DNA of 64,000 bases from Chloroflexota bacterium (GCA_014360805.1 JACIWU010000006.1:8199-72198); one strand, 5' to 3'. Numbered from the stretch's first letter, positions 4,544-55,650 are shown. Notes: generated by a model from the letters alone, not told the origin. Numbers and translations: made by a program.

Positions 4544-7500
4544 ATGGGTACCGATATGTTGCGCCTACGCGGGCCCCGCGGCCGCATCGTGCTGGCCTGG
4601 GTGTCTGTCGCGGTGGGCGTCGCCCTGGTGCTGGGACTCGCCGCCGAAGCGATGAGTCCCCCCGCGCCGCAGGCCCCGGCCGAAGCGGAGATCGTGTTCC
4701 AGGAAGCGCCTCTTGCACCCCCCGAACCCTATGAGCCGCATCCCCAGGGCGGCTACATTCCTCCGCCGGTAAACCTCTCGCACTTCCACGCCACCTGGGA
4801 TGGCCCCGCCCCTGCGGCGAACCTATCGCGCTTTGACTGGCGCGAGCAGGGAAAGGTAACGTCGGTCAAAAACCAGAACCCCTGCGGCGCATGCTACGCC
4901 TTCGCCAGCATCGCCGCCTTTGAATCCAAACTCCTCATTGACAACGCAGGCACGTGGGATTTTTCGGAGAACAACGCCAAAGAGTGCGACTGGTATGCCG
5001 GCTCCTGCGGCGGTGGCAACTACTACCGCATGGCGAGTTTCTTCTCACAAGCCGGCACTGTGCTGGAATCGTGCGACCCCTACGTGCCTTCCGACGTGCC
5101 CTGCACCACGGGCTGCCCGTACCAGAAGACCCTGCTAGACTGGCGCATCGTCTCGGGCAACGCCATACCGGATACCAACACGCTGAAGAACTACATCATG
5201 ACCTACGGGCCGGTGATGACCACGATGTACGCGGGCAGTTCCAACAACGCCTGGCAGCGGGAATTCAGCGCCTACGACGGCAGTTACACGCTCTACTACA
5301 CCGGATCGGGCAACCCCAACCACGGTGTGCTCATCATCGGCTGGGATGACTCGCTACCGCACGCGGGCGGAACCGGCGCGTGGATCGTGAAAAACTCGTG
5401 GGGCACCAACTGGGGCGGGACGTGCGGCTTCGGCTCCGAGCGCGGCTACTTCACCATCGCCTACGGGTCGGCTAAGATCGGGGGGAATTCTGCTTTCATT
5501 TACGACTGGCAGAACTACGACACAAACGGCAGCATCCTATACTACGACGAAGCCGGATGGCAGGGCTCTTCTTGGGGTGTCGGAACTACCACCTTGTGGG
5601 GTCTTGCCAAATTCTACCCTCCCACGAACACAAATGTAACCCGCGTGGAGTTCTGGACGACCGACAGGACTACCGATGTGGATGTGTACCTGTACGGCGA
5701 CTTCAACGGGACAACGCTCAGCAACCTGTTGGCCCAGAAGTTGAACAACGCCTTCAACGAGCCGGGATACCATTCGGTTGCACTGGACGCGCCGGTGCCG
5801 GTCAGCGCCGGGGATGACGTGATCGCCGTGGTGAAGGTTACCAACCAATCCTACACGTACCCCGTGGCCTCCGACCGAGACGGGCCGCACGAGACCGGCC
5901 GCACGTATATCAGCGCCAACGGGACATCGTGGACCGACCTGGGCGCCAACCATTCGCAAGATGTGGCCATCCGCATCCGCACGACCGGGCAGGCGGCGAC
6001 CAGCCCCACGCCCACGCCCACGCGGACGGCAACGCCATCGGGCGGGGCGCCGGCGACCGGCCCGTGGTCGGGCACTACCAGCCGAGGCCAGCCCATGTCG
6101 TTTGACGTGCAGGGAGGCGGCGCGCAGTGGGCCAACTTCCGGCTGAAGACCGACTTCGTCGCGACCACCTGCGGCAACGCCACCGGCACCACCGAGATCA
6201 CGCTATACGGTCCGGGGAGCATTACCGGCGGGCAGTTCAGCGGGGGCACCAGCACCTTCTCGTTCACCGGCCAGTTCTCGTCACCGACGGCGGCCAGCGG
6301 GACTTACGCATTCACCAATCACCAGATCATCGTAGGGCTGCCGTATCCGCCCTACATTTGCTACTACTACCTGACCCAGTCGGGAACGTGGAGCGCGACG
6401 CCTGGGAGCGCGGGCACAGCAACGCCGACGCCGACGGCGACGCGGACCCCTACCCGCACACCCACGCGCACCCCGACGGCAACGCGGACGGCGACGCGGA
6501 CCCCTACCCGCACACCCACGCGCACGGCCACGCGAACTCCGACGCCGACGGCGACGCGCACGCCCACGCGCCGCCCGACGAACACCCCCGGCCCGTCGCC
6601 CACGTGGGTGCCTGGGGCACAGGCGCGGGTCTGGCTGCCCATCGCCTTCCGGGACTGGAATATGTCCGCCGCGCCCACGGCCACCGCCACGCGGACACCG
6701 ACGCGGACGCCAACTCCCGGCCAGCAGGTAATCCGGATTGGGGTGGCTGCCGATCTCAGTGGGCCAGCGGCCTATGTGGGATGGCCGCAGGTCAACGCTG
6801 TGCAACTGGCCATCAACCAGACGAATGCCGCCGGCGGCGTCCGCATCGGAGGAACGTCCTACCTTTTGGAACTGGTAGCCGCGGACAGCGCCTGCAACGG
6901 GGAACTGGCTCCAGGCGCAGCCAATGATCTGATCAACGCCGGGGTGGTTGCTGTGGTGGGACACACGTGCAGCGCCGAATCCATCGCCGCCCAGCCCATT
7001 TACTACGCTGCCGGTGTGCCTATGATCTCCCCTTCGTCCAGCAATCCGGAACTGACCCTGTTAGGCTACAACACGACCTTCCGAACAGTGCCCCATGATG
7101 GCACTCCGCCGACCCTCTTGGCAACCTACCTGCGCAACTCTGCAGGCCTGTCCCGAAGCGCCATCGTGGACAGCAGCCCGGCGGTGCCCTGGTGGGGCGA
7201 CTCCTACGCGGCGACCTTCACGGCGCTGGGCGGCACCATCACCAGCCGGCGCGCGGTGAACAGCACCGACGAATTCACGGCCACGCTGGCGGCTATCCAG
7301 GCGGAAAGCCCGGATGCCATCGCGAACCTGTCGCTCTCGGGGCCGGTGGAGGCCGGCCTGTTCAGCCAAATCGCCTGCGACCTGGGGATGACAGATGTGC
7401 CCGTCGGCTGGATGTCGCGGACGAACGACGAGTCGGTGTTGACCGACTACGCCAACACGGCCGGGGCGGCAGCCGAAGGCGACTACATCGCCATGTCGTT

Positions 7501-8485
7501 CCGACGCTTCCAGGACATGCCCGGCTGGCAGGGCTTCCTGGACGCTTACCTGGCTGCCGGGTTTCCCAACGAACCTGACCATCCAGGTGTCCACGGCGCG
7601 ATTGCCTATGATACCGCCCGCATCATCATCTCCGCCATGGTCCGGTCGCAGAGCACCAGCCCTGCCGTGATTCGGGATTTCATCGCCGCGACGAGCAACT
7701 ACGAGGGCGTGGTCGGCACCTATGTGGGCTTTGACGCTCACGGCGACGTCATCCCACAGTGGTCCTGGCTGGAGCAATACCGGAACGGGGCGTGGGTAGA
7801 GGTTGCCAGGGAACAGCCACCCGCGCCCACGGCCACCGCCACGCGGACACCGACGCGGACGCCAACAAGAACGCCGACGCGCACGCCAACCGCAACGCCC
7901 GGCGGAATGCCGCAAGGGCTGCATGTGCTGGACAACTACTCTCATTACGTGGACGAGATAGATTGGCTGCACATCGTGGGCGAGGTGTTCAACAACACGG
8001 CCAACGACTTCTGGCTGGTGGATGTTCCCATCGCATTCTACGATGGCAGCGGGCGGCTAATCACCGCGAATCTGGGATGGACGCCACTGGACGACCTGCC
8101 TGCGGGGGAGACAACCTGTTTCCACGCTCTTCTGCAGAACCCAACAGGGTGGGTGTACTACGAGTTCGGCCAGCCGGACGGTCTGGTGATGGGCGAGAAA
8201 TGGCCGAACCTGACATTCCTGTCGCACACCGGATCTGTGGACGCCTTTGGCCAGTACCACCTCACGGGGCAGGTGCGCAACGACCACGGCTCCACAGTAG
8301 AGTGGGTGCAGGTGGCGGGGACGTTGTACAACGCTCAGGGCATCGTGGTGGGGTGCGAGTCGGCCTTCACGGACCCGGAGGACCTCAACCCATCGCAGGT
8401 CGGTGCGTTTGACATCCCATTCTTTGGGCGCAATTACTCTGACGCTGCGTCGTACAAACTCCAGGCGGACGGCGACCCGCAGTAG
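4544..8485 (+). CDS. secreted multidomain protein: papain-like (C1) cysteine protease + beta domains + PT linkers + type-I periplasmic binding (LivK-like) domain + tandem FxLYD-like domains
   Basis: AAGGAG precedes ATG 4544, followed by a signal peptide. C1 triad context: [43 protein letters not shown]1 motif block: [37 protein letters not shown]...[30 protein letters not shown]. The C-terminus has two units with IAFYD and GTLYN motifs. Confidence 0.9.
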
Positions 8486-12198: not shown

Positions 12199-13104
12199 CT
12201 ACGACCAGAACCGCACCGCGTCCACCATGAACGTCTCAAAGTTGATGGTGCCGCGGTAGAACTGCAGGGAGTAGTAGGCAATGTCGGCGGCGCGTAGGCC
12301 CGGCGACGAGTCGGCGGGGAAGTTGACGAACCCCGCCCCCCACGGCGTGCCCCACTGCCACGTCAGGTAGTCGCCCGAAGCCAGGTTGCCCAGGATGAGG
12401 AAGTAGTACATGGGGTAGATGGGCACGGTGCTCCCAACCTGCGTGCGCACGCCCCCGATGCACTTGTACCCCTTGATGCCCGCGCCCGACATCTCAAACT
12501 CCGTGTAGTTGTCGGCGTCCCTCACCGAACGGAGCACGAATTTGGCGCTGGTGGCCGGATAGAAGAACACGAGCGCCATCTTGTAGCGCGGCAGTTTGCC
12601 CGGGTCCGTGCAGCGCAGTTCGGCGGGGTTCGGGTTCGCGCCGGTGGACTGCCAAACGTACAGCCAGTGTGGGTACATGCTCACGCTCCAGCCCGATCCG
12701 GTGGCCGCGCCGGGTTCCGCGGCCCATGCCCAGCCGTTGGCGCCGATGGGGCTGGCGGTGAACTCGGTGTCGTGGACGTTGGGCGACGACGGGGCGGCGA
12801 CGCGGTTGTACCATCGGGATGCGAGCGACGCCGGGCCGAAGGCATTGTCCAGGCGGTCGTGCGCGTGCTGAATGGTCTGATCGGGGCTGGCGAGGGCCGC
12901 GCGCGACGCGACGATCAGGGCCTGGTCGGGCGGGTCGGCCGGGTTGGCCCAGACCTCCACCAGCGCGCCCGGGGCGAGCATGGCGGCGTCCACGTGGGTC
13001 GCCACGCGCACCGACTCGGTGCGGCGGTCGGCGTCGCCCCAGTACTCTACCACGGCGACGCGCGCGTTGGCGTCAAATGAGCGCACGATGGCTTTGCGCA
13101 GCAC
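12199..13104 (-). CDS. hypothetical protein, beta-rich, no signal peptide (301 aa with the GTG start)
   Basis: ORF 12199..13290. The upstream part of the ORF runs into repeat DNA. The best start is GTG 13104, preceded by GGGGAGG at 5-nt spacing. A weak TTATCA-17-TACATT promoter lies at 13139-13167 (minus strand). I recognise no family. Confidence 0.55.
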   Translation of the reverse strand: MLRKAIVRSFDANARVAVVEYWGDADRRTESVRVATHVDAAMLAPGALVEVWANPADPPDQALIVASRAALASPDQTIQHAHDRLDNAFGPASLASRWYNRVAAPSSPNVHDTEFTASPIGANGWAWAAEPGAATGSGWSVSMYPHWLYVWQSTGANPNPAELRCTDPGKLPRYKMALVFFYPATSAKFVLRSVRDADNYTEFEMSGAGIKGYKCIGGVRTQVGSTVPIYPMYYFLILGNLASGDYLTWQWGTPWGAGFVNFPADSSPGLRAADIAYYSLQFYRGTINFETFMVDAVRFWS

Positions 13105-13227
13105 GGCAGCCTCCCCGATGGGATTCCACGGTAGCCGCAATGTAGCGCAGCCCATCGGGCTTGATAAGGGCGACGGGGTCAGAAGCCGAAGGCGCATGGG
13201 TTTGCCCGTAGGTTCGCCCGACGCGGA

Positions 13228-13298
13228 AACATCAGGCTGAACGGGCCAAGCCCTGCGGGCTGGCGTCATCCACGAATAACACGAATCCACACGAAGGG
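13228..13298 (+). repeat. family B element (CATCRGGCTGAACGGGCNAAGCCCTGCGGGCTGG arm plus ATCCACGAATAACACGAATCCACACGAA units)
   Basis: The same two-part arrangement occurs at 17421-17530. CACGAA/CGCGAA unit copies also occur at 20436, 20986, 27886, 32707, 38765, 59180 and 59289. Confidence 0.8.
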
Positions 13299-13493: not shown

Positions 13494-15686
13494 CTACCGC
13501 CCCGCCTTCGCGCGCACCTCTGCCAGATACGCGGCGTCCTTCTCCGCGTCGGGGTGGCCGATGGCCTGCTCGTAGTCCACGCGCACCTGCATCAACTCCG
13601 CGGCGCGGGCGTAGTCGCCTCGCTGTTCCGCCAGCAAGCCCAAGTTCCATGAATGAATGCTTTGATTACGCTGGTCTCCGATTTCTTTGGCTATGGCAAT
13701 TGCACGTTCGTAGAGCGGTATCGCTTTCTCTGCCTCCCCTAGCCTTTGGTAGGCGATGGCAAGGCAGCCGAGGGCGTTGCCTTCCCCGCGGCGGTCCCCG
13801 ATCTCGCGGGCAATGGCCAGACGCTGCTCGTAGAACGCAATGGCGCGGCGGGGGTCCCCCAGGTCGGCGTAGGCCAGCCCCAGGTTGCCGAGGGCCGCCC
13901 CTTCCCCGCAGCGGTCCCCGGTCTCGCGGGCGATGGCCAGGTGCTGCTCGTAGAACCCGATGGCGCGGCGGGGGTCCCCCAGGTCGGCGTAGGCCAGCCC
14001 CAGGTTGCCGAGGTGAGCCCCTTGCGCCCGTTTGTCCCCCAGATGCCGCGCCGCCTCCAGCGCCGCCTCCAGCACCGGTATCCGCTCCCTCGGCGTCATC
14101 CGCAAATCCAGCACGTAGGCCATCCTGCTGGCGAAGTCGCTCAGCCACCGCGCGGCCGCCTTGTCGTAGGGGCGAGCCGCCGGCCCGCCCCTACCGAAGA
14201 TTTCCTTCATCCACGCCCAAGCCGCCCGCAGGTGCGGCAGCGCCGCGTCAAACCGCCGCAACCCCTCCACGGCGTCGGTCTTGTACAGGTCGTCGGCCGC
14301 GCTGCCCGCCGCCAGGTAGTATGCGGCATGGCGGCGCCGCGCCCCGTCCAACCCCTCCGGCGGCTCGGCCAGCGCGTACTCCCGCAGCAGGTCGTGCAGG
14401 GCGTAGGTCCCCTTCGCCTCGTCGTACTCCACCAGCGACCACCGGTACAGTTCGGTCAGGGCGTCGCGGGTTTCGTCGTCGGGCAGCGGGACCGGAACCC
14501 GTTGCCCCGCAAGCGCGGACACCAGTTGCGCTACCACGTCGCGCAACTCCTGCGGCACTTCCTCGCCCAGATCGGGCAGTTCGGATGGAAACTCCCCTTC
14601 CTTGCCCCACACCGCGGCGGCGGCCTGCCGCTCAAACGGCGCGGGGAACACCCCGAGCAGCCGCCACCGCCGGGCCAGCGCCGGCGACTGCTTCTCCAAC
14701 TGCCGCACGCTCACCTCCAACGACGCCCGCACGCTCCCCTCGCCTTCCGCGTCCAGATGCTTCAGCCGCTCCGCCTCCAGCGCCGCGATGTATTCCTCCA
14801 CCGGCCACGTGCGATTCTGCACCAGAAACGACGCCGCGATGCGCAGCGCCAGCGGCAGGCGCCCGCACAGGTCCGCGATCCTCGCCACCTGCTCGTCCGT
14901 AACCGCGCGCCCGCCCGCCTTCAGGATGCGGCGGATCAGGTCCCCCGCGTCCTTCGGCGACAGGACGTCCAGGTTCTTGTCCAGGCACGCCCCGTGCAGG
15001 GCGAACCGCCGCCGCGACGTTACGACGACGGCCCACCCCGCGGGCGGCGGAAGGAGCGGCCGCACCTGGGCGGCGTCGGCGGCGTTGTCCAGCAGCAGGA
15101 ACCCGCGCGCGCCGGCCATGACCTGCCGGCACAGCGCCTGGAGTTCGCCGAGCGAGTCGGGGAGTTTGGCCGCCGGCGCGAAGGCGCGGACCACCTCGGC
15201 CAGGACCTGCTCGGGGGTCTTGGGCGCGTCGCCGACCTGGAGGGCGATCTCCAGTTGGGCGTCGGGGTAGTCGGCGGCGAGGAGTTGGCCCACCTTGCGG
15301 GCCAGTTCGGTCTTGCCGATGCCGCCCATGCCGCGCAGGCCGGATATGAGGGCCGAGTCGCAGCGGCCATCGGGCTTGAGGGCGGCGGTGAGTTCGGCGA
15401 TGTCGGCTGTGCGGCCGGTGAAGTCGGCCACCGGCGCGCCGAGGGTGTAGAGGGTGGGCGGGAACAGCCATTCCAGCGCCTCTTTCGTCAGGACTATGTC
15501 CCCGGTGAGGATGGTGCTGCCCTCCGCGTCGCCTGCGATGGCCACGCTGCGTTGTCCCCCAGCCACGGCCAGGCGGATGACACCTTTGCCTTTGGCCTCC
15601 TGCAACAGGCGAAGATCGTCCTCTGTAGCCTGCCTGCGGTTCAGGCGTTCCAGCGCCTCGCGGATGGCCGATGCGATGTCTGCCAT
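13494..15686 (-). CDS. NLR-like STAND NTPase: short N-terminal beta-motif + NB-ARC + TPR repeats (730 aa)
   Basis: GGAGG precedes ATG 15686. Walker A GMGGIGKT, Walker B FLLLDNA, GRLPLAL (GLPL-type motif). C-terminal TPR units such as LGNLGLAYADLGDPRRAIGFYEQHLAIARETGD are repeated. N-terminal residues ~44-66 read QRSVAIAGDAEGSTILTGDIVL. Confidence 0.9.
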   Translation of the reverse strand: MADIASAIREALERLNRRQATEDDLRLLQEAKGKGVIRLAVAGGQRSVAIAGDAEGSTILTGDIVLTKEALEWLFPPTLYTLGAPVADFTGRTADIAELTAALKPDGRCDSALISGLRGMGGIGKTELARKVGQLLAADYPDAQLEIALQVGDAPKTPEQVLAEVVRAFAPAAKLPDSLGELQALCRQVMAGARGFLLLDNAADAAQVRPLLPPPAGWAVVVTSRRRFALHGACLDKNLDVLSPKDAGDLIRRILKAGGRAVTDEQVARIADLCGRLPLALRIAASFLVQNRTWPVEEYIAALEAERLKHLDAEGEGSVRASLEVSVRQLEKQSPALARRWRLLGVFPAPFERQAAAAVWGKEGEFPSELPDLGEEVPQELRDVVAQLVSALAGQRVPVPLPDDETRDALTELYRWSLVEYDEAKGTYALHDLLREYALAEPPEGLDGARRRHAAYYLAAGSAADDLYKTDAVEGLRRFDAALPHLRAAWAWMKEIFGRGGPAARPYDKAAARWLSDFASRMAYVLDLRMTPRERIPVLEAALEAARHLGDKRAQGAHLGNLGLAYADLGDPRRAIGFYEQHLAIARETGDRCGEGAALGNLGLAYADLGDPRRAIAFYEQRLAIAREIGDRRGEGNALGCLAIAYQRLGEAEKAIPLYERAIAIAKEIGDQRNQSIHSWNLGLLAEQRGDYARAAELMQVRVDYEQAIGHPDAEKDAAYLAEVRAKAGR

Positions 15687-15728
15687 AGCGCGCCTCCTGT
15701 CAAGCGCAGGTCGGAGCGTGCTGCGCCC

Positions 15729-16040
15729 CTAACGCTTGTCTTTGATGTTGCCCGTTACGATGGTGCTCCCCTTCACGTCGCCCGCGATGGCGACGCTGCG
15801 GTCGCCTTCGGCGTGGGCCTTCCGCTCTGCATCCCGCCGCGCTCGGGCAGCGCGCCTGGCGGACGGCAACCGCGCGATGATCAGCCCGACGCCGGCCAGG
15901 CCGATAAGAGCCAGCACCGGCCACACCCATCCGAATTCCTCGGGCAGGAATCCGTAGGACGCCAGCGCGCCCAGAAGGCCTACCAGGGCGATGCCCGCCT
16001 TGACCCAGTCCGCTACAGAACCCCACTCTTTGTCGTCCAT
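15729..16040 (-). CDS. two-TM mini-protein (103 aa) whose C-terminus carries the same motif as the NLR N-terminus; putative membrane effector
   Basis: Complete ORF ending 42 nt upstream of the NLR start, same strand. Hydrophobic helices are GIALVGLLGALASYGF and VWPVLALIGLAGVGLIIA. The C-terminus reads DRSVAIAGDVKGSTIVTGNIKDKR. Confidence 0.75.
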   Translation of the reverse strand: MDDKEWGSVADWVKAGIALVGLLGALASYGFLPEEFGWVWPVLALIGLAGVGLIIARLPSARRAARARRDAERKAHAEGDRSVAIAGDVKGSTIVTGNIKDKR

Positions 16041-16057
16041 GGCCTACCCCCCGTACC

Positions 16058-16133
16058 GGCGGCTAGGGATAGCCGCCCTACGACTACGACTCGCCGACCG
16101 CTGACGGCTATCGGCTATCGTCCGACCGCTGCC
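16058..16133 (-). repeat. family A hairpin (inverted) plus family D (GACCGCTGAC-type) units in the 5' UTR of the mini-protein/NLR operon
   Basis: GGCGGCTAGGGATAGCCGCCCTAC at 16058-16081 is the reverse complement of the GTAGGGCGGCT..AGCCGCC type. CGCCGACCGCTGACGGCTATCGGCTATCGTCCGACCGCTG lies at 16092-16133. Confidence 0.7.
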
Positions 16134-16136
16134 CCC

Positions 16137-16166
16137 ATTCTACCCCACCCCCGCGCGGCGCGTCAA
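16137..16166 (-). promoter_or_regulatory. sigma-70-like promoter TTGACG-18-TAGAAT (minus strand) for the mini-protein/NLR operon
   Basis: Reverse complement: TTGACG (16161-16166), an 18-nt spacer, TAGAAT (16137-16142). It lies about 95 nt upstream of ATG 16040. Confidence 0.45.
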
Positions 16167-16186: not shown

Positions 16187-16215
16187 TTGACACGCGCACA
16201 GCCCTGCGCTACAAT
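16187..16215 (+). promoter_or_regulatory. sigma-70-like promoter TTGACA-17-TACAAT
   Basis: TTGACA at 16187-16192 and TACAAT at 16210-16215. GAAGGAGG and ATG 16263 lie downstream. It is divergent from the minus-strand promoter 20 nt away. Confidence 0.5.
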
Positions 16216-24979: not shown

Positions 24980-24994
24980 TGGACAAAGGGCTGC

Positions 24995-25120
24995 GGTTCT
25001 CCTTTCCGAGCACGGGGGGCGTGGGTGTTTCCACCCGCACCGTTGGCCCGAGGGGTTGCCCCCTGGGCGCTGCGGCTGCGCGCCATGGGCCGTCGCCTTT
25101 AGGCCGCGCAGCTCGGAGAG
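24995..25120 (-). promoter_or_regulatory. Moco (molybdenum/tungsten cofactor) riboswitch candidate
   Basis: The minus-strand RNA starts CUCUCCGAGC and closes with GCUCGGAAAGGAGAACC (P1 CUCCGAGC/GCUCGGAG-like). Internal hairpins are GCUGCGCG..CGCGCAGC, GGGG-GCAA-CCCC and GGGUG-GAAA-CACCC. Its position upstream of a tungstate transporter is the classic context. The motif match is from memory, not a covariance model. Confidence 0.5.
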
Positions 25121-25148
25121 CCTGGCCGATATTCGGTTCTTCGCGGCA

Positions 25149-38973: not shown

Positions 38974-39234
38974 ACATAATGTAACGAGGAGTCTGATGCT
39001 CTGGGGCCTTGTCGCACCATGCGGCTGGGCCGGCTGCCTTTCGGCGCGAGAGAGGCGGTTGGCGCATGGGCGAGAAGGTGGCACCCCGCCGCTTGTTTCC
39101 ACAAAAACGATAACAACCGAAGAAAGCGCCGAGGCACGAAGGCGCGAGTTCGTGCATGGGCGGGAAGTCCGGCGGAAAGCGCTGCGGCTTCGTTTTGCCC
39201 TATGCGCAGACCAGTGCGTACAAGGAGGCCTGTC

Positions 39235-42200
39235 ATGAGGAAGGCAACATGGTTGGGCGTGGTTGTACTCGTAGCGCTTGCGCTGGCGGTCGGGATGGGG
39301 TTGGCGGTGTGGCCCGCCCATGCGGCGCCCGGCATCCTGCTGGTGAAGACCTCCGATGCTGGCGGAACGGCTGTGCCGGGCCAGGTCATCCAGTACACTA
39401 TCTGGATCACGAACACCGACCCGGGGCCCGTTACGCTGGAGGTGCGCGATGACCTGCCGTCGCAGGTGCAGTACATCGGCGGCAGCGCCGTGGCCGCCTC
39501 GCCTCTGACGTATGCCGACGACTTCGGCGTGGTCAGTTGGTCCAACAACACCGGTACGGCCAACTGGGCCGGGCCGTGGGTGGAGACCAACGATGCCATC
39601 GGCCCCCACATCGGCGACCTCGTGATTGAGAATGACGCTGGAAGTTATCGCCTGCGCATGCGCGCCGCCAACAAGTCCGTGGAACGCCCCGCTGACACCT
39701 CCACCATGATCCAGCCCACGCTGCGCTTTATCCGCAAGTTGTGGTCGGTGGAGACGAACGACTGGTTCTACCTGGACGTGTACGATGGCGGAGTGTGGCA
39801 CAATGCCGTCATGTCCTGGAGCGTAGGCTCCACGCAGGATGTTTACGTTGCCGAGGAAGTGAACCTCACCCCCTATAAGGCCTCCAATCTTGCGATTCGG
39901 TTCCGCACGGGCTCGTCCGTGAGCACCGGCGATGTCATGTACGTGGACGATGTGGAGATTTACGACAAGGGCACCGCCCTGGCAGCGCCGCCGGTTATGA
40001 CGACCAGCCTGGTGGTGGAAGCGGGCGCGGCGAAGGTGGTGCGCCTGTCGGCCGTGGTCCTGCAGCCCCTGTCTGGCGGCACCCTCATGACGAACACCGC
40101 CACCGTGAAGAGCGGCGCTGTTGTGCTGGCGACGGCCCAGGTTACCGACGTGCTCCAAGCGCCGATCCTGGCGATCACCAAGCAGGCCGTTCCCGCTGTC
40201 GTAGAAGCGGGCGAGCGCATCACCTACACGGTGCGGGTTACCAACACCGGCACCACGACGGCCAACAATGTGTCCATCTACGACCCGGTGCCGGCGAACA
40301 CGTCCTACGTGGGCGGGAGCGTGCAGTTGACCGGGTTCTTGCCTGAGGGCGCGCCTTCAATCGGGCCACGCGCCACGCTGTGGGACTCGGAGCACGCGAG
40401 CCTGGTGCGCGCGCGGCTCGCCCCGAGCATTGAGATTGCGGGCGTGGGCGCGCCGCCGTGGATTTTGACCGGCCACACCCTGGCCCCCGGCCAGGCGGTT
40501 ACCGTTACGTTTGAGGTGCAGTCGCAGGCCCCGCTGACCAACGGCCTGACCATAACCAATACGGCCTCGGTAACGTGCACGCAGATCATCACGCCGGTTT
40601 CGGCGTCGGCGTACACGACCGTGCACAGCAGCCCCTCGCTGACCATCACCAAGTCCTCGCAGATTGTGGGCACGCCGCCGCTGAACCCCGACGACACGCT
40701 GCGCTACGTCATCACGCTGACCAACTCGGGCAACGGCAACGCCACGGGCACGGTGGTGAGCGACACGCTGCCTGCGAACACAACGTTTGTGCCCGGCAGC
40801 GTGGTGATTTCGCCGTCTTCTGCAGGCGGCACGCCGGGAACCCCGCCCAACATCGCCACGGGGATCTCTGTGCCTGGCATGGGCGGCTCGGTAACCGTGC
40901 AGTTTGACGTCAAGGTGGACAAGCCCCTGCAGAACGGCACGGTGATCACCAACACCGCCGCGACTCGCTGCACCGAGGACGCGACCTGGCAGGTCTCGTC
41001 GCCGGTTACGAATACCGTCGTCAGCGCGCCCTACGTGGTGGCGACCAAGTCGGCCCAGGACATGACGGGCGGCGCGCCGCTGCGCCCGGGCGACGTGCTA
41101 AGTTACACCGTCGTGATGACCAACGTGGGCACCATGAACTACTACAACCTGGGGCACAACGAGTTCGTGGACATCCTGCCCCTCACCTACGCCTCGTATG
41201 TGGCGGGTTCGCATACGGCGTCTAGTGGCACTATCACTTTCGGGACCGACCGCGTCCGCTGGAACGGCGACCTGCTGGTGGGCCAGCCGGTTACGCTGTC
41301 GTTCGCCATTCAGTTGAGCACCCCACTGACCAACGGCCTGACCATCACCAACACTGGCGAGGTGCGTTACGACAGCGACGGCGACGGCGACTACGACGGG
41401 CTGGACATCCCCGCGCAGACCAATGCCGTCGTCAGCACGATCACGGCCTCGCCCAACATCGTGGTTACGAAGACCTCGGCGGACATGACCGGAGGCGCGC
41501 CGCTGCAGCCCGGCGACCAGTTGCGCTACGAGATCGTCTTCACCAACACGGGCGACATGGACGCGGTGGACATGGTGCTGACCGACACCATCCCCGCGAA
41601 CACGACGTTCGCGATTGCGGGCGCCGTTCCTGGCGGCGGGACGCTGGTCTCCACCAGTCCGGTGCTGCGCATTGAGGGTATTGACCTGGCGGCGGGGGCT
41701 TCGGCGTCGTTCGCGTTCCGCGTGAACCTGGACAGCGTCATCACGGTGGGCACGTCCATCACCAACCGCGCCTACATCCTCTACGACAGCGACGGCGTGG
41801 GCGGCAACGACACGCTGGCGCAGTCCAATCTCGTCTCCGACGCGGTAACCAGTTCGCCGCAGTTCACGCTGACCAAGCAGGCGCACAGCGCAACGATTGT
41901 GCCCGGCCAGCCGGTAACGTATACCATCGTCCTGACGAACACGGGCGATGCCCCCGCCACAGGCGTCGTCGTGAGCGACACGCTGCCGCCGCAACTCACC
42001 TTCGTGCCGGGCAGCGTAACGATTGCGCCGGCCTCGGCAGGCGGGACGGCCGGGACGCCGCCGCAGATCGCCACGGGCATCAGTGCGCCCGTGGGCCAGC
42101 CGATTACGGTTACCTTCCGGGCCACCCTGGCGCGCCCGCTGGACAACGGCACCGTCATCACCAACACGGCGGGCGTCTGGTGCGCCGAGAACGCAACGCC

Positions 42201-45200
42201 CGTTGCCAGCGCGCCTGCAACCTTCACCGTTGCGAGCGCGCCGGCGGTGGCAGGCGTGAAGACCATGCAGGACCTGAACGGCGCGCCGCTGCGCCCCGGC
42301 GACCAGGTGCGCTACACCCTCATCGTAACCAACACCGGCACCATGGACCAGGGCGACTACTCGGGCAACGAGATTCGCGACGCCCTGCCCACGTACACGT
42401 CGTTCGTGAGCGGGACCCTGTTTGCCTCGTCGGGCACGGCCACCTACGACAGCGTGAACCGGCGCGTCCTGTGGAACGGCCCGCTGCCGGTGGACCAGCC
42501 GGTTACCATCGTGTTTGACGTGCTGCTGGATAACGCCATCCCCAACGGCACGGTCATCCAGAACCGCGGGCGGCTGTACTGGGACGATGACGGCGACAAG
42601 GCCAACAACCGCACCACTTACACGCCCTACGCCTCGGGCACGGTGCTGAGCGCGCCGCTGATGGTGGCGCACAAGACCTCGCTGGACCTGAACGGCGGCG
42701 TGTTTGAGCCTGGCGACGTCATCAGTTACACCGTCGTCATCACCAACATCGGCAACATGGATCAGCCGGACATTCCGTCGCACTTTGAGTTCTACGACCC
42801 CATCTTCCCGGGGCTCACCTACAAGCCTGGGACAGCGACCCAGCCTTGGGGGACGTGGGGCATTGACGGAACGTCGGTGAAGTGGACAGGCCCCATCACC
42901 GTGGGCGTGCCGCTCACGCTCACGTGGGCGATGGACGTGGGCGTCCTCAGCCACGGCACGGTGGTTACCAACGCCGCCGAAATCCGCTACGACAGCGACG
43001 CCGACGGCGACTGGGATGCCAATGATGTTGTCGTTACGACCAACATGACCCAGGACACGATTTACTATCTGTCCTCGCTGTACGCGACCAAGATATCCGA
43101 GGATATGACGGGCGGAGCGCCGCTGGAACCGAACGACGTCATCCGCTACACCGTCATCATCACCAACACGGGCAACCGTCCTGTTGCGGGCGCGGTCTTC
43201 ACCGACTCGGTGCCCGCGAATACGACGTTCCTGGACGTGCCCACCATTCCGGGCGGCGCGGTCAACGAGAGCACCTCGTCGCAGGTGAAAATCTCCAACA
43301 TCTCCATCCCGGCCAATGGCGGCAGCGTTACGATTCAGTTCCGCGTGCGGGTGAACCTGCCGCTGTGGGATGGCACGGTCATCAGCAACCAGGGCTACGT
43401 GCGCTACGACCGCGACGGCCTGGGCACCTACGAGATGATCCCCACCGACGACCCGCGCACGCCCGCCCTGAACGACCCGACGCAGGACACGGTAACCTCG
43501 GCGCCGTCGCTGGTGGTGACCAAAACCGCCCAGGACATGGACGGGGGCAATCTGCGCCCGGGCGATGTGCTGAGTTACACACTGATCATCACCAACACCG
43601 GCACCGAGAACGCGGTCAACGTCGCGGTAACCGACCCCGTACCGGCGAACACCACCTTCGTGCCCGGCAGCGTTACTCGCGAGCCGGCGTCGGCAGGCGG
43701 GACGCTGGGCGCGCCGCCGAATCTGGTGTCGGGCATGGTGATCACGGCGCAGACGTCGGTTACGCTGACGATGGCCGTGCAACTGGACACGCCGCTGGAC
43801 AACGGCACGCTGATTACCAATACCGCGACTGTGAGCGCCGACCGCCTGTCGCCCATCACGGCGACGGTAACGAATACGGTTACCAGCGCGCCCATCGGCA
43901 ACGTGGCCAAGATAGGCACGGACGTGAACGGCGGCAATGTGGTGCCCGGAGACCGCCTGGACTTCCAGGTGGTGCTGTGGAATACCGGCGACATGAACCA
44001 GGGCGACAACGCGTACGACGAGTTCTGGGATGTCCTGTCGCCCAACGTAACGCTGGTGCCGGGCACCCTGGCGTCCACGTCGGGGACGGCGACGTACAAT
44101 TCCGGCGAGCACCGCATTGAGTGGAACGGCCCGGTCAACGTGGGCCAGCCGGTTACCATTACCTACAGCGCCGACGTGAACCTGCCGCTGAACAACGGCA
44201 CCAGCATCCAGAATACCGCCTACTTCACCTATGACGGCGACGGCGACGGCGTCAACGAGACAACCGTAACGTCGTCGGCGAACTTCACGGTAGTAAGCGC
44301 GCCGTTTGTGGTTGCGCACAAGTCGTCGCTGGACGTGAACGGCTACCCGCTGCGCCCCGGCGACATCCTCAGTTACACCGTCGTCTTGACCAATGTCGGG
44401 ACGATGGACTACCTGAACCTGGGCCACCACGAATTCGTGGACATCCTGCCGCTCGCGAATGCCACCTATGTGGCCGGTTCGCACACGGCCTCCAGCGGCA
44501 CCATCACGTTCGCTACCGACCGCGTCCGCTGGGACGGCGACCTGCTAGTGGGCCAGCCGGTAACCCTGACCTTCGCCATCCAGTTGAACACGCCGCTGCC
44601 CAACGGGACGGACATCGTGAACCAGGGCGAGTGCCGCTACGATAGCGATGGCGATGGCGACTACGACGCTTCGGACACCCTTGCTTACACCAATACCGTG
44701 ACGGACACGGTTACCAGCGCCGCCGTGATAGAGATAACGAAGTACTCCGAGGACATGACCGGAGGCGCGCCGCTGCAGCCCGGCGATGAACTGCGCTACA
44801 CCATCAACTTCACCAACACCGGCGACATGGACGCGGTGGACATGGTGCTCACCGACACCATCCCCGCGAACACGACGTTCGCGATTGCGGGCGCCGTTCC
44901 TGGCGGCGGGACGCTGGTCTCCACCAGTCCGGTGCTGCGCATTGAGGGTATTGACCTGGCGGCGGGGGCTTCGGCCCAGTTCCGCTTCCGCGTTACGCTG
45001 GACAGCGTGATCCCCGTGGGCACGTCCATCGTCAACCGCGCCTACATCCTGTACGACGCCGACGGCAACGGCTCCATGGAGTCGCTGCGGCAGTCCAACG
45101 AGGTGGTAGACCCGGTTACCAGCGCGCCTGTGCTGGCCATCAGTAAGTCGGCGACAGACGTGAACGGCGCGCCGCTGGTGCCCGGCGACACGCTGCGCTA

Positions 45201-48200
45201 CACCCTGACCATCAACAACACGGGCAACGCGCCCGCGGAGCAGACGGTCATCAGCGACACGCTGCCGGCCAACACCACCTGGGCCGACAACATCACCATC
45301 AACCCGCCGTCGGCCGGCGGGACGCCCGGCACGCCGCCCAACATCGTAACCGACCTCACGGTGCCGGTGGGCACGCCGGTTACGGTAACCTTTGACGTAA
45401 CGGTGAACCGCCCGACGCCCAACGGGACGATCATCCGCAACCGCGCCGACGTTTCGGCGTTGGGCGCGCCCACGCCCGTGCTCAGCAACCAGGTCTCGCG
45501 GACGGTCTCCGCGCCGGTGTTTGACATCAGCAAGGTCAGCGAACCGATGACGGTAACCCCCGGCTCGCTGATGACCTACACGATTTACATCACGAACACG
45601 GGCCCCGTGGCCGCCAATGACTTGAGCGTGGTGGACACCCTTGCGCCCTACGTAACCTACGTGCCCGACAGCGCGGGCCTGAAGGTGCCCACCGTTTACG
45701 CCGACGACTTTGAGTCCAACACCTACAGCGGCAACACCGGCAATACCGACTTCGCCAGCAACTGGGTGGAGTCGGGGGATGATGCCTCATCCTCGTCAGG
45801 GAACATCCTTCTGATTTCCAACTTGGGCAGCAGGCGGCTGCGGCTGAACGGCAACGGGACTAGCGCCATGTACATCCGCCGCAACGTGGGGGATGTGCTC
45901 CCGTTCACCGCGCCGCATGTAGCGTTTGACGCTCGGGCCGTAAGTCTTGAGGCGGGCGACACCTTCCGCTTTGATGTGTACGATGGCGCCGCATGGCAGA
46001 TCGTCTACACATGGAGCGGCCCGCTCAGTGAGGCGGGCTACACGACCCGAGACTTTGACATCAGCGGCTACGCGAGCGCCGACCTGCGCATCCGCTTCTG
46101 GGTGAGCAGCGCGAACGACAGCGGCGATTACCTGTACGTGGACAACGTGCGCGTGTACGACGCGGGCACGCCCATTGACCCGCCGCCCAACCTCCTGTCG
46201 GGCTACATGCTGAATGCGGGCGAGGCGATCACGCTCACGTTCAACGTAACGGCTACGTCGCCGCTGACCAACGGCCTGTCCATCGTCAACGAGGCCGGCG
46301 TGTACTGCTACGAACTGCCCGTGCCGCAGTACGTAACGGCCACGAGCACCGTGGACAGCAGCGTGAGTTTGGCCGCCACGAAGACGAGCATTGACCTGAA
46401 TGGCGGCGATGTAACCCCCGGCGACACGCTGCGGTACCAGGTGGTGCTGACGGCCACCGGAGCGGGCATCGCCACGAACACGAGCATCGTGGACCCGCTG
46501 CCGGCCAACACCACCTGGCAGGACAACGTAACGGTTACGCCGCCGGGCGGGGTGGCCGGCTCGCCGCCCAACGTGCTCACCGGCCTGTCGGTGCCGGGCG
46601 GCTCCACGGTAACGGTTACCTATGACGTGCAGGTGAACGCGCCGCTGGCCGAGGGCACGGTCATCACCAACACGGCCACCATCAGCAGCCCGGACATCCC
46701 GGCCGCCCTGACCACCACGGTAACGGACACGGTGCACACGGCGGCGCTGGCCATCTCCAAGGCTGCGGATTCGTCGCCCATTGTGGCGGGCGGGGTGGTA
46801 ACGTACATCATCACCGTGCAGAATACGGGCGCTACGACCGCCACCAACGTGGTCGTAACCGACACGCTGCCGCCGGAAGTTACGTACATCCCCGGCTCCA
46901 CGCTCATCGCCAGCGCCTTCACCTACGCCGATGACTTTGGCTCCGGCGACTACAGCGGCAGCACCGGCACGCAGCCCTGGGCGGGCGCGTGGACAGAGTC
47001 GCCCGCCGACGGTGGGCCGCTGTCGGGCGACATCACCGTCGTGTCCGAGAGCGGGAGTTTGCGCCTGCACGTGAGCGGCACCAGCAAGACCATCCGCCGC
47101 CAGGCCGACATCCGCAGCATGTTCTACCCGGTGCTGGAGTTTGACCGCAAACTGGTGGGCATGGAGAGCGGCGACACTTTCACGCTGGAACTGTACAACG
47201 GCAGCACGTGGACGACCGTGCGCTCGTGGAACGGGCCGGCGGATGAGTCCGGCTACACGCACGAGGTGGTGGATCTCAGCGGCTACAAGGCCAGCAACTT
47301 CCGCCTGCGGTTCGGCAGCGGCCCGGCCAACGCCGCCGATGATCATCTGTACGTGGACAACGTGATCATCTACGACACCGGCGTGCCCGGTAATGCGCCG
47401 CCGGTGCTCACCGATACCCTGTCCATCGGGCCGGGGATGGCGATGAACGTGTCGTTCCAGGGTAACGTCGCCAGCCCGCTGGACAACGGCTCCACCATCA
47501 CGAACCACGCGGGCGCCAGCAGCCAGCAGACGCCGACGCCGGTCCTGGCGCAACTGGTGTCCACGATTTCCAGCGCGCCGGACGTGCAGGTTACCAAGAC
47601 CTCGTTTGACCCCAGCGGCTACCCGCTGCGGCCCGATGAGGTGCTCAACTACACCATCGTCCTCAACAACGTGGGCACGATGAACCAGCACGACAACCCT
47701 GGGTTTGAACTGCTGGACGTCATCCCGACCAACACGACGTATGTGCCTGGGAGTCTGTTCTTCACGTCGGGTTCGGGCGCGTACAACGCCGGCTTGAATC
47801 GCATAGAGTGGGACGGCGCGGTGAACGTGGGCCAGCCGGTAACGGTGTCTTTCTCGGTGCGGACCAACCCGCTCCTGGTGAACGGCACGCCCATCTACAA
47901 CCTGGCGGTGCTGAACTACGACACCGACGGCGACAACACCAACGACGGCACGCGCGCCAGCCCGGTGATTGACCTCATCACCAGCGCGCCGTTCGTGGTG
48001 GCGCACAAGACCTCGGTGGACGTGGACGGCGCGCCGCTGCGCCCCGGCGAGATCATCTCCTACACGGTGGTCTTCACCAACGTGGGAGACATGGATCAAC
48101 TAGACAAGCCCGGCGCCGAGTTCCTGGATGACATACCCGCCAACACGACCTACATCACGGGCAGCAAGTGGGCGTCTTCTGGCTCGGTAACGTACAACAG

Positions 48201-51200
48201 CACGTACAATCGCATCGCCTGGAACGGCAACCTGCCGGTGGGCGTGCCCGTAACAGTGAAGTTCGCCGTGCAGTTGGACAACCCGCTGCCCAACGGGACG
48301 GCCATCGTGAACACGGGCCGCGCCTTCTACGACGCGGACGGCGACGGGACGACCAACGAGGCGGTGGCGCTGGCCGGGCCGATTACCGACACGGTTACCA
48401 GCGCGCCGCGGATTGAGATCACCAAGGATGCGGTGGATGTGAACGGCGCGCCGCTGGAACCCGGCGACGTGCTGGCCTACGACATCACCATCACCAACTC
48501 GGGCAACATGAACGCCGTGGACATGGTGTTCACCGACACCATCCCGGCGCACACCAGTTACCTGTCGGTGGAGAACCTGCCCGCCGGCGCGGTGCTGGCG
48601 GCGACCTCGCCCGAGTTGCGCATCACCAACCTCAACGTGAACGCCGGCACGGCGGTTACCTTCCGCGTGAACGTAACGCTGGACCTGCCGCTGCCCAACG
48701 GCACCGTCATCAGCAACCAGGGCATGCTGGCCTACGACGCCGACGGCGATGGCAGCAATGAGTCGCTGGCGCCGACGGACGACCCGACCACGCCCGCCAT
48801 CAACGACCCAACGGTGCGGACGGTGGTCAGCGGGCCGGTGCTGGTGGTTACCAAGACCTCCAGCGACCTGAACGGCGCGCCGCTCGGTCCAAACGACTTG
48901 CTGCAGTACCAGGTGGTCATCCGCAACGATGGCAAGGCCGATGCGACCAGCGTCGTGGTGAGCGACACCGTGCCTGCCTTCACCACATGGCAGGACGCGG
49001 TAACGATTGACCCGGCGTCGGCTGGCGGCGTCATCGGCGCTCCGCCGCTCATCGTATCGGGCATGACGGTGGGGGCGCAGCAGTCGGTAACGCTGACCTA
49101 CCGCGTGCAGGTGAGCGCGGGCGTGGTGGACGGGACGCCCATCGTCAACCGCGTGCAGGTGCAGTGCGCCGAAGATCCGACCTGGCGCACCGCCGTGCTC
49201 ACGGATACCGCCTACGCGCCGGTGCTCCAGATATCCAAGATTGGCGAGCCGAACCCGGTGGAGGCGGGCGCAGTCCTGACCTACACGATCCTCGTGTCCA
49301 ACACGGGCGGCTACCCCACCGGCAACGTCTCGCTGGCCGACACGCTGCCCGCCCAGGTGGCCTACGTGCCAGGCTCTACGGTGCTGGCGGTTACCACCAC
49401 CTACGCCGACGACTTTGAGAGCATGACCTACAGCGGCAGCACCGGCACCCACGCCTGGGCCAGCAACTGGGTGGAATCGCCCGGCGACGGCGGCCCGCTG
49501 GCGGGCGACGTGGGCATCCTCAGCGAATCGCTGAGCCGCAGGCTCCACGTGAGCGGGGCCAGCAAGTACGCATGGCGGCAGGCCGACCTGATGCCGTTCC
49601 TGAAGCCCACCCTGCGGTTTGATCGCAAGTTGGTGAGCCTGGATGGGCCGAGCGACTACTTCCGCGTGGAAATCTGGAACGGCGTGGCGTGGACGCCGCT
49701 GCAGACCTGGACCGGGCCTGCAGACGACGGCGCGTACTACACCGAGACCTTTGACCTCTCGGCGTTCATCGTGAGCGGCGCGCGCATCCGCTTCCGCAGC
49801 GGCCCGTCCAACAGCGTGGACGATCACCTGTACGTGGACAACGTGATGATCTACGACGCGGGCGTGCCGGGCGGCGCGCCGCCGGTGCTGGCGACCGGCC
49901 TGACGCTCCAGCCGCGCACCACGCTGCGGGCCACGTTCCAAGTGCAAGTGAACAGCCCGCTGCCCAACGGCACGACGCTGGTCAACAGCGCGTCGGTAAC
50001 CAGTCAGCACTTCCCGACGCCCATCGTCGCCACGATGATGAACACGGTGCACTCCGCGCCGAATATCCAGGTGGACAAGACCTCCCTGGATGTGAACGGC
50101 GGGTTGCTGGCGCCCTATGACGTGCTGCGGTATCAGGTGGTCATCCGCAACACGGGCAACGCCGACGCCACGAATGTGAACCTGACGGATGAACTGCCGG
50201 CCTACACGACATGGGTCGGCAACGTGAGCATCTCGCCCGTGTCGGCGGGCGGCATCCCGGGCACGCCGCCCAACGTGGCCACCGGCATGACCGTGCGCGG
50301 CGGCGAGAGCGTAACGGTAACCTACGAGGTGCGGGTCATGCGGCCGGTCATAGACGGCACCGACATCGTGAACACGGCCAGCGTGAGCAGCCTGCAAGCG
50401 CCCGGCCCGTTCACCGATACCATCACCGACACGGTGCACTCGCCCACGCTGCTCATCGGCAAGGGCGGCACGCCGCAGCCGGTGGACGCGGGCGAACTCG
50501 TTACCTACACCATCGCCATCACCAACTCGGGCACGCTGACCGCAACCGGCGTGGTGGTGAGCGACACGCTGCCGCCGCAGATCACCTACGTGCCGGGCAG
50601 TTCCACCTGGAGGCTTGGCGCGACCTACGCCGACACGTTCTCCATCTACAGTTACTCGGAGAACGACGGCACGGTCAACTGGACGAGCAACTGGAACGAG
50701 CAGAACGACGACGGCCTGCCGACCTCGGGCGACGTCGGCATGGTCTGGGACTTGGGGAGCCTGCGGCTGAGCGTGCGGAACGCCAACCGCGCCATCTGGC
50801 GGCAGGCGAACATCAACTACTTCTACCAGCCCAGGGTGCGGTTTGACCGCCGCATCGTGGGGCTGGAGGCGGGCAAGGCCTTCTACCTGGACGTGTACAA
50901 CGGCTCGGTCTGGCAAGTCGCGCAGACCTGGTTCGGGCCGCTGGACGAGGCCGACTACACGACTATCGTCGTGGATCTCACTCCGTACAAGTCCACGGCC
51001 ACCCGGATTCGCTTCCGCGCCGGCACGACGCTGGACTCGGCGGACACGATGTACGTGGACAATGTGGAAATCTACGACGAGGCGCAGGCCGGCGGGTCGC
51101 CCGGCAGCCTGGTAACGGGTGCCACGATCCCGCCCGGCGCGAGCCTGGTGGTGCAGTTGACGGGCCGCGTCGCAAGCCCGCTGCCCAACGGGACCACGCT

Positions 51201-55548: not shown

Positions 55549-55565
55549 CACAATAAGAACAGTCG

Positions 55566-55601: not shown

Positions 55602-55650
55602 GGCTCATCTGGGGCTTGTTCTCATCGCGGCTCCCGACGGAGAGAGGCTC

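Follow-up and report, generated by a model that had tools for sequence, protein, structure and literature searches.

The locus described here raises the question of why a small membrane protein should end in nearly the same residues that stand near the N-terminus of the NOD-like receptor (NLR) protein encoded directly downstream. It lies in a stretch of 64,000 nt from a Chloroflexota bacterium (GCA_014360805.1 JACIWU010000006.1:8199-72198), called the window below, in which positions are counted from the first letter. Our results make it moderately probable that the two genes form an NLR/effector module of the amyloid-signalling type, coupled by a bacterial amyloid signalling sequence (BASS) and working by the mechanism proposed further on. 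Most likely, the pair serves as a switch for cell suicide or defence, known in kind but with an unusual integral-membrane executioner. The gene pair, the shared motif and its family, the NLR architecture, the conservation, and the generality of pairs of a small protein and a STAND protein are established here in silico.

The upstream gene (15729-16040, minus strand, as are all features of the pair) encodes the effector candidate, a protein of 103 aa with a predicted N-in/C-in hairpin of two transmembrane (TM) helices, an Arg-rich linker and a C-terminal motif. The downstream gene (13494-15686) encodes an NLR-like STAND NTPase of 730 aa, to which domain searches assign the order EAD10 - NB-ARC - TPR. 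The small gene lies upstream on the same strand, and the intercistronic spacer of 42 nt (15687-15728) carries the Shine-Dalgarno sequence AGGAGG of the NLR gene, 8 nt before its ATG, as well as a hairpin that begins at the stop codon of the small gene. The two genes apparently share one operon.

A reading of the window made from the sequence only (hereafter the sequence-only reading) had described the small open reading frame (ORF) at 15729-16040 with two hydrophobic helices, an Arg/Ala linker and a terminal motif, and all of these were found. The protein begins with MDDKEW..., followed by two hydrophobic segments (~aa 9-33 and 36-61; Kyte-Doolittle >1.6 over 19 residues), the linker RLPSARRAARARRDAERKAHAEG, the motif DRSVAIAGDVKGSTIVTGNI and KDKR. 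Its end reads ...RSVAIAGDVKGSTIVTGNIKDKR, in which the motif RSVAIAGDVKGSTIVTGNI is trailed by the four residues KDKR. The first predicted TM helix (~aa 13-31, 15948-16004) exceeds a hydropathy of 1.6 over 19 residues and contains the invariant residues G21, G24, S28 and G30; the second (~aa 36-57, 15870-15935) reaches a hydropathy peak of 2.22 and contains the invariant stretch GWVWPVLAL. The Arg/Ala-rich linker (aa 58-79, 15804-15869) places eight basic residues after the second helix. Following the positive-inside rule, both termini, including the motif tail, should therefore be cytoplasmic, and this topology should put the motif on the NLR's side of the membrane. In the AlphaFold2 (AF2) monomer, helices were predicted at residues 3-28, 39-57 and, at low confidence, 59-88, while the motif was unstructured with a pLDDT <50. 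Confidence was low overall: both AF2 models discussed here (small protein and NLR N-terminus) are monomers built from shallow alignments, with pLDDT values of 59 and 66.

Database searches placed the small protein in no Pfam, NCBIfam or PADLOC family. PADLOC returned only a weak LeoBC match (E=0.0015) over the TM region. Of three family members, one matched the PHROG family phrog_14607 (holin/anti-holin) at E=0.042 and another at E=0.014, which is non-significant and probably driven by composition. A PDB sequence search gave three weak, unrelated matches (best E=0.11), none of them to a Bell- or Babybell-type chain. Across the PDB sequence searches with the small-protein family, with the Bell-like N-termini introduced below and with the EAD10 alignment, only de novo TIM barrels and the rice Pik HMA domain matched weakly (E 0.01-0.1), which we judged to be chance.

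The motif of the small protein (aa 80-99, 15744-15803) recurs in the NLR as RSVAIAGDAEGSTILTGDI (aa 46-64). Between aa 81-99 of the small protein (15744-15800) and aa 46-64 of the NLR (15495-15551), 15 of 19 residues are identical. This is the identity given by the sequence-only reading, although its nucleotide ranges for the two copies were slightly too wide. BLASTP lengthens the match to 19 identical residues out of 27 (E=7e-8), and a regular-expression scan of the six frames of the 64 kb found the motif pattern at these two places only. At the DNA level, the 57-nt copies are 79% identical, and six of the 15 identical codons differ synonymously. These synonymous differences rule out a recent partial duplication or gene conversion as the origin of the motif, and the identity is therefore maintained at the protein level.

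The small gene is rare but well conserved. Among 5.8e9 proteins, its homologues form only three clusters, with 96, 77 and 70% identity, and each of them is exactly 103 aa long; a metagenome scan with the small-protein alignment yielded two contigs, both already known. Pairwise dN/dS of the small ORF is 0.13-0.31 at a dS of 0.6-1.15, where synonymous divergence is near saturation, and the ORF clearly behaves as a true gene under purifying selection. On every contig that reaches far enough (L001, L002-4, L005-10), an NLR orthologue with the same motif starts 40-49 nt downstream of the small gene. Pair, motif and length of 103 aa are retained in three lineages besides the window, so that the ORF is kept in four lineages with the NLR always following. 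The flanking genes vary by lineage (amylase and AP-endonuclease, PFK, miaA, or a ferredoxin-like gene). Because the neighbours are different in each lineage, the two genes must travel together.

These data bear on the simplest alternative, namely that the similarity is functionless: a chance match, a leftover from partial duplication, or a short ORF that arose spuriously because the DNA is rich in GC. The window does have 66% G+C and many spurious long ORFs, and the small protein lacks a family annotation. Yet a spurious ORF would hardly keep exactly 103 aa in four lineages at the dN/dS values given above, with dS up to 1.15, nor would a chance match or leftover be kept as a motif in both partners in all lineages, in two DNA copies that have diverged synonymously. 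As shown below, the arrangement also recurs in dozens of unrelated genomes. We regard this alternative as extremely improbable and effectively refuted.

Two observations were made beside the pair. A 363-aa ORF (12199-13290, minus strand), 204 nt downstream of the NLR gene, was considered as a third component and rejected: it has no Pfam match, similarity to related strains ends at 13482, and the ORF is not conserved beside the pair in these strains. In a closely related strain (L005, 10355-13974), NLR residue 150 is followed by an N-gap in the scaffold and then by an NLR paralogue of 968 aa with a ~95% identical NB-ARC domain. The 175-aa N-terminal domain of this paralogue, which adjoins a DDE transposase, is unrelated; it has no Pfam match and no relation to the Bell-like domains or to the small protein. 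This arrangement suggests either swapping of N-terminal domains between NLR paralogues or assembly collapse.

The large protein has the architecture of an NLR, as the sequence-only reading had proposed from its NB-ARC and TPR signatures and as the Pfam scan confirms. The NB-ARC domain (PF00931, E=3e-8) spans aa 109-327 (14706-15362) with the Walker A motif GMGGIGKT, and the C-terminal TPR region (~aa 530-730, 13497-14099), a putative sensor, matches TPR_12, TPR_7, TPR_10 and others with E-values down to 6e-26. Part of it is encoded by 120-nt repeats. The same Pfam scan found no enzymatic or other effector domain in the NLR, and PADLOC returned only generic TPR models for it, with no Avs or other defence family. 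An AfsR/SARP-type regulator was considered and dismissed: a DNA-binding domain of the SARP type is lacking and the N-terminus is of the EAD10 type instead. The NCBIfam AfsR match (210 bits versus a cut-off of 1430) spans only AfsR 290-570, i.e. NLR aa 81-361 in the NB-ARC/TPR part.

Some variation was seen in the NLR gene. The TPR region has a 120-nt period at 13780-14013 with 93% matches, and relatives differ in TPR copy number (730 aa in the window versus 968 aa for the L005 paralogue). In addition, the window NLR has ~40 extra residues (~aa 360-400, ...EFPSELPDLGEEVPQELRDVVAQLVSALAGQRVPVPLP..., nt 14485-14606) that are absent from the 95%-identical orthologues of L005-L007; nucleotide similarity with these loci is interrupted exactly at 14485-14606.

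The N-terminal domain of the NLR (aa 7-65, 15492-15668) combines a helical hairpin with the beta motif. The Pfam model EAD10 (PF19954) scores 17.8 bits on the full protein and 22.3 bits on aa 1-92, i.e. below the gathering threshold of 24.1. With aa 1-92 as query, phmmer recovered 18 true relatives among 1.84 billion representatives, several of them NB-ARC/TPR proteins; a further match (P0004) was a spurious hit to a repeat protein and was dropped. Of these 19 sequences, query included, 12 match EAD10, with a best E-value of 1.1e-11. Since its relatives match the model, the NLR N-terminus is likely an EAD10 member by transitivity. The consensus of the N-terminal relatives, L..ALERL..G.....D...LQ.A..AG.I..A.G.RSVAIGGDA.G..I.TGD, reads as a helical hairpin with three rung-like units (h-x-h-x-G-[DG]) behind it. 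The sequence-only reading had noted a related rung ahead of the motif; this rung, IRLAVAGG (aa 37-44), was found and belongs to the conserved part of the domain, where the consensus ahead of RSVAIGGD is G-x-I-x-x-A-x-G. In relatives, rung units on the NLR side are duplicated: AQAKAEGR[IS]VLAV occurs twice in L001 (3131-3619) and LTGDIT twice in L002 (3634-3930). These duplications resemble the pseudo-repeats of beta-solenoid amyloid motifs.

In the AF2 monomer of the NLR N-terminus, the helical hairpin was well predicted (helices 2-16 and 22-33, pLDDT 76-87), strands 40-42 and 47-49 had low confidence, and the motif region 43-61 had a pLDDT <50. That the motif is modelled as unfolded in both monomers, beside predicted flanking helices, fits a segment that folds conditionally.

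To which class does the motif belong? EADs (effector-associated domains) have been described as adaptors on a core NTPase and its adjacent effector, and an analogy to Death-fold domains led to their definition as homotypic couplers (Kaur et al. 2020, PMC7159879). EAD10 was classed among them as mixed alpha+beta and mainly effector-recruiting (Kaur et al. 2020, PMC7159879). When the small-protein family was aligned with remote EAD10-type N-termini, hhalign gave a probability of 96.8% (E=2e-10) over 29 columns, which cover only the beta half of EAD10, without the helical hairpin. The Pfam EAD10 model itself matches neither the small protein nor the Bell-like partners.

BASS6 pairs listed in Table S2 of Dyrka et al. 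(2020, bioRxiv 10.1101/2020.01.06.895854) read GERSVAVgGDNSGTISTGDGA / GARSVAVaGDNHAHIFTGDGV and ATGFRSVAVGGDVGVAITGDGAR. We compared these and the other BASS classes on a profile built from the beta motif of remote relatives only, with the window family left out. The window motifs scored 43.6 bits (NLR) and 39.4 bits (small protein). All 12 of 12 BASS6 examples scored between 28.3 and 3.4 bits, four of them >20 bits, and every one ranked above the 23 examples of the other nine BASS classes, which reached at most 2.9 bits. Among the ten BASS classes, the motif thus appears specifically BASS6-like, as judged by our own profile rather than the published pHMMs and with a spacing 1-2 residues off. 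An earlier profile from 19 heterogeneous BASS6 sequences of Table S2 had put both window motifs at ~4 bits, the noise level of six-frame ORFs, because two sub-types were mixed and the profile was too short. Taken at the level of these profile comparisons, BASS6 corresponds to the beta half of EAD10.

Motif-coupled pairs are not confined to the window. With a pattern from a 6-sequence alignment derived from the window, one genome per GTDB species was scanned, and 42 loci were confirmed, 41 of them with motif ORFs. They come from Anaerolineae, Chloroflexia, Thermoflexia, Ardenticatenaceae, Actinomycetes, Gaiellaceae, Nonomuraea, Acidobacteriota, Planctomycetia and one cyanobacterium, and are mostly metagenome-assembled genomes (MAGs) of Anaerolineae, Chloroflexia, Actinomycetes and Acidobacteriota. 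The window-derived query also recovered a bona fide actinobacterial BASS6-type locus, L052 of Nonomuraea. A motif-profile scan of ORFs in these loci revealed 32 small proteins that carry the motif at their C-terminus, in the typical form TVTASGERSVAIGGxVSGSxIITGD. Strict collinear pairs make up at least 19 of the 42 loci: there, the small gene is followed by one for a protein of at least 400 aa with an N-terminal motif copy, and in 15 of them the gap is -4 to +38 nt. The 28 large motif proteins (the window NLR and 27 from the loci) include 10 NB-ARC, 5 NACHT, 3 nSTAND5 (nSTAND_NTPase5) and 12 AAA_16 matches. The motif is tied to STAND N-termini and to the C-termini of adjacent small proteins. 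A scatter over unrelated proteins, which the sequence-only reading had named as grounds for rejecting its own proposal, is not what these loci show.

Nearly all small partners in the related loci share an N-terminal domain of the form MD...L...V..FL.PFLPYLLK.GEKAAEE.GKK.G.EAWE.AK.LW.KL. They are usually 135-160 aa long, carry an acidic residue in second position and have a single N-terminal helix of moderate hydrophobicity. Hydrophobic N-terminal helix, acidic position 2 and size are published hallmarks of the Bell domain, and by these features the usual small partners are Bell-like; Pfam has no model for their domain. The window protein differs from them. It is shorter, with 79 residues before the motif, and has two strong TM segments whose hydropathy (up to 2.22) is reached by almost no Bell-like protein. 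When the N-terminal 78 aa of the window family were compared with 12 Bell-like N-termini, hhalign gave a probability of 0.4%, i.e. no relationship. Here, an unrelated two-TM hairpin takes the place of the Bell-like domain, and only four lineages are known to have it. The sequence-only reading, which had inferred a pair of the BASS/Bell type with a two-TM protein in place of a Bell or HeLo domain, is upheld in silico by the BASS6-like motif, the Bell-like usual partners and this lack of relationship.

Several related loci depart from the two-gene layout. In a Thermoflexia MAG (L022 668-1243, DUEL01000062), one ORF consists of two TM helices, a BASS6-like motif and an NB-ARC start (FTGREKELEE...); it is truncated, frame-shifted onto a TPR end and located beside an IS200-like transposase. 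This is the only other combination of TM helices and motif that was found, and a search with it returned itself only. It resembles what is left of an all-in-one NLR anchored in the membrane. In L014 (4579-5214), a Bell-like domain, the motif and NB-ARC are fused in one protein. In L021 (1730-2272) and L024 (4585-5238), a Bell-like domain and the motif are followed by a conserved C-terminal extension of ~70 aa (...VESSM..VGYD....L.VVF.SGRVYCYEDVPPEV...). The fusions in L014 and L022 support a functional link between membrane-targeting module, motif and NOD.

How might such a pair work? Because the NLR has no output domain other than the EAD10-type one, the motif-bearing membrane protein is its obvious output. 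The model with the best support follows the paradigm of BASS, HET-S and Bab. We propose that the hairpin is inserted in the cytoplasmic membrane and keeps both ends on the inner side, the motif tail facing the cytoplasm. A ligand, probably a phage or other non-self cue, would bind the TPR region and trigger NTP-dependent oligomerisation of the NLR. The oligomer would gather the N-terminal motifs into a stacked cross-beta nucleus, which would template the same motif on the hairpin protein and drive its polymerisation. The clustered hairpins, rich in small-xxx-small patterns and of holin-like topology, would then breach the membrane, leading to death or growth arrest. As the effector is probably pre-inserted, activation would proceed through clustering of hairpins and not through release of a buried helix. 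In this scheme, topology, templated polymerisation, lethality and trigger are inferred, as are amyloid formation, toxicity and a role in defence.

An alternative explanation might be that the same two proteins meet in a stoichiometric, non-amyloid adaptor contact, either homotypic in the EAD10 manner or by beta-augmentation, without self-propagating templating. The NLR oligomer would then recruit or cluster a fixed number of hairpins, or would itself be drawn to the membrane. This would agree with the definition of EADs as homotypic coupling adaptors (Kaur et al. 2020, PMC7159879) and with the well-predicted helical hairpin of the NLR's EAD10-type domain, and the all-in-one fusions L014 and L022 show that the motif can serve as an intramolecular linker; the amyloid nature of the motif, moreover, is only inferred. 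A globular contact between domains is nevertheless unlikely for a small protein that has the 29-column beta half but no helical hairpin. That beta half is specifically BASS6-like, and those BASS classes for which assays were done form prions and fibrils; the motif is predicted to be disordered in both monomers, and relatives have duplicated rung-like units of the sort found in beta-solenoid amyloid motifs. The beta half alone on the small protein, the disordered motif and the rung duplications favour beta-strand templating over a globular adaptor contact, without proving it. We therefore consider an adaptor contact possible but rather unlikely.

The unusual partner also invites another explanation, in which the small membrane protein is not the executioner but the anchor, negative regulator or sensor of the NLR, watching the envelope or sequestering the NLR's N-terminus, with the output elsewhere. 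In contrast to Bell or HeLo proteins, it is probably always inserted in the membrane. The fusion in L022 looks like a membrane-anchored NLR, and a related strain has a second NLR paralogue with a different N-terminal domain beside the pair. An output elsewhere is difficult to reconcile, however, with an NLR that lacks an effector domain and with a pair that no other conserved gene accompanies. In related loci, the protein that has this position and this motif is Bell-like, and a protein of that class was shown to be the cell-death executioner in Bab/Agp. NLR logic points the same way, as NLRs sense with their C-terminal repeats and signal to effectors through the N-terminal domain. An anchor or regulator role seems improbable to us.

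Returning to the amyloid-signalling module, several observations weigh against it. The immediate neighbours of the pair encode a ferredoxin-like protein, an ATP-grasp enzyme, a pyridoxal phosphate-dependent (PLP) decarboxylase, a DnaJ protein and a YcxB-like protein, with no recognisable defence island, and PADLOC identifies neither protein as a defence component. In Dyrka et al. (2020, 10.1101/2020.01.06.895854), BASS1 and BASS3 were the motifs assayed, and BASS6 was not among them. The spacing from GD to TGD is 7 residues here versus 5-6 in published actinobacterial BASS6, and the AF2 models have low confidence (pLDDT 59 and 66). Finally, Bell, Babybell and HeLo, the known executioners, are soluble helical bundles in which a single hydrophobic helix stays buried until activation, and a pre-inserted protein would need another activation logic, which is speculative.

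The DNA around the two genes offers possible points of control. A sigma-70-like promoter match, TTGACG-18-TAGAAT (16137-16166, minus strand), lies upstream of the small gene. The sequence-only reading had taken it for the pair's own promoter; the sequence match stands, with 10 of 12 consensus positions against 0.2 expected in shuffles, but it is a match to the consensus only and says nothing of function. A divergent second promoter-like match is located on the plus strand at 16187-16215. Between the promoter-like site and the small gene, the 5' leader contains a heptanucleotide tandem repeat (CGGCTAT / AGCCGAT; 16105-16120, minus strand) of 2.3 copies, whose copy number varies between strains: a 96%-identical strain has ~9 copies (L006, 172-252). 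Nucleotide similarity to relatives stops at 16101-16105, i.e. at this repeat. The heptamer repeat could be a copy-number-variable expression switch. The hairpin beginning at the stop codon of the small gene (UAGGGGCGA...UCGCCCCUA) is found at 15687-15731 in the window, at 3080-3105 in L001 and at 3592-3617 in L002. It has 11 bp and is strong in L001 (z -4.5) and L002 (z -2.7) but weak in the window (z -0.9); its inner stem differs between L001 and L002, with compensatory changes. Possibly, this hairpin might set the expression ratio of effector to NLR.

Elsewhere in the window, a molybdenum cofactor (Moco) riboswitch (Rfam RF01055) was found at 24983-25130 (minus strand) with 57.4 bits versus a gathering score of 36. 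An ORF of 5509 aa (39019-55548, plus strand) contains at least 25 DUF11 repeats as well as DUF7927, DUF7507 and DUF7619, and probably encodes a surface protein of very large size; it is overlapped by long ORFs on the minus strand (41098-44484, 45796-48099 and 48100-59295) that have no Pfam match and are probably spurious. A protein of 1313 aa (4544-8485, plus strand) has an unusual architecture of papain-family peptidase C1, lectin-like and Peripla_BP_6 / ANF receptor domains. No rRNA or tRNA was found in the 64-kb window.

If the proposed mechanism is true, the pair would be among the smallest amyloid-signalling cell-death modules known, with one membrane protein of 103 aa and one NLR. The question would then move from the release of a helix to how polymerisation of a tail turns harmless hairpins into a lesion. 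The results also connect the literatures on EAD10 and BASS6 as dealing with one element under two names, and show that BASS6-type pairs are common far outside Actinobacteria, particularly in Chloroflexota and Acidobacteriota MAGs. Only tentatively do we go further, to a joint claim that we think has less than an even chance: that amyloid signalling extends beyond soluble helical-bundle executioners, with an NLR gating a pre-inserted holin-like hairpin through polymerisation of its cytoplasmic tail, which would make the hairpin a distinct, minimal class of membrane effector triggered by amyloid, that EAD10 and BASS6 are the same, and that EAD10-coupled conflict systems of Chloroflexota, Actinomycetota, Acidobacteriota and others signal by prion-like templating. 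Principle, motif family and adaptor domain have been published before, so that no new principle is involved; new is the rare two-TM hairpin effector.

The closest known systems are the BASS6 pairs of Dyrka et al. (2020). As in the window, a small gene directly precedes the gene of an NB-ARC/TPR NLR and is collinear with it, and a motif of ~20-25 aa, G-[ED]-R-S-V-A-[IV]-x-G-D...I-x-T-G-D, occupies the C-terminus of the effector and the N-terminus of the NLR. BASS1 and BASS3 form prions and fibrils according to the same study (10.1101/2020.01.06.895854). The window pair differs in that its effector is a two-TM hairpin with no detectable Bell-like relation, and in that the NLR motif (aa 46-64) is found inside a full EAD10-type domain and not at the extreme N-terminus. 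Furthermore, its host appears to be non-actinobacterial, as the nearest N-terminal relatives are Anaerolineae/Chloroflexota MAGs. Effectors other than Bell have also been reported, i.e. hydrolase, TIR2, CHAT and cyclase (Dyrka et al. 2020, 10.1101/2020.01.06.895854). Hence, the Bell domain is typical but not obligatory for BASS pairs. The hosts from which such pairs were described are multicellular or filamentous prokaryotes (Dyrka et al. 2020).

EAD10 (PF19954; PMC7159879, PMC8195603) is likewise a small, non-enzymatic alpha+beta adaptor at the N-terminus of STAND NTPases; it is predicted to recruit effectors and has been described with a second copy on the product of the adjacent gene. The window NLR N-terminus and 11 of its 18 remote relatives match the model, the former just below the gathering threshold, and the window partner differs in having the beta half only. 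The published accounts of EAD10 (PMC7159879, PMC8195603) were not found to state a BASS-type motif in EAD10 or a TM-hairpin partner.

For Bab/Agp (BASS11) of E. coli, amyloid-controlled abortive infection has been shown experimentally (Ibarlosa et al. 2024, bioRxiv 10.1101/2024.11.07.622273). There too, a membrane-targeting protein of ~100 aa with a C-terminal amyloid motif adjoins a large TPR sensor with an N-terminal copy, and EAD10 and BASS11 hold the same N-terminal position in TGP proteins. In contrast, its motif is described as another family (BASS11), the sensor is TPR-GreA/B-C-PIN while the window NLR has no GreA/B-C or PIN match, and its effector, a Babybell domain, is soluble and made of five helices, one of them hydrophobic and hidden, instead of a two-TM hairpin. 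Bab/Agp sits in prophage defence hotspots, whereas the window pair lies among housekeeping-type genes.

In the fungal NWD2/HET-S system (HRAM, HeLo), an N-terminal NLR motif templates the C-terminal motif of an adjacent membrane-targeting protein, the logic proposed here for the window pair, and rung-like pseudo-repeats are likewise present. Motif and effector fold are unrelated to those of the window, however; HET-S has two pseudo-repeats on the effector side, while the window family has its extra rungs on the NLR side. Class II holins and pinholins share with the small protein of the pair a small size, two TM helices, a probable N-in/C-in topology and a highly basic cytoplasmic C-terminal tail, and its lethality, too, would depend on oligomerisation in the membrane. 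From these, the small protein of the window differs by lying outside a phage context and by bearing, at its C-terminus, a motif that matches the NLR encoded next to it.

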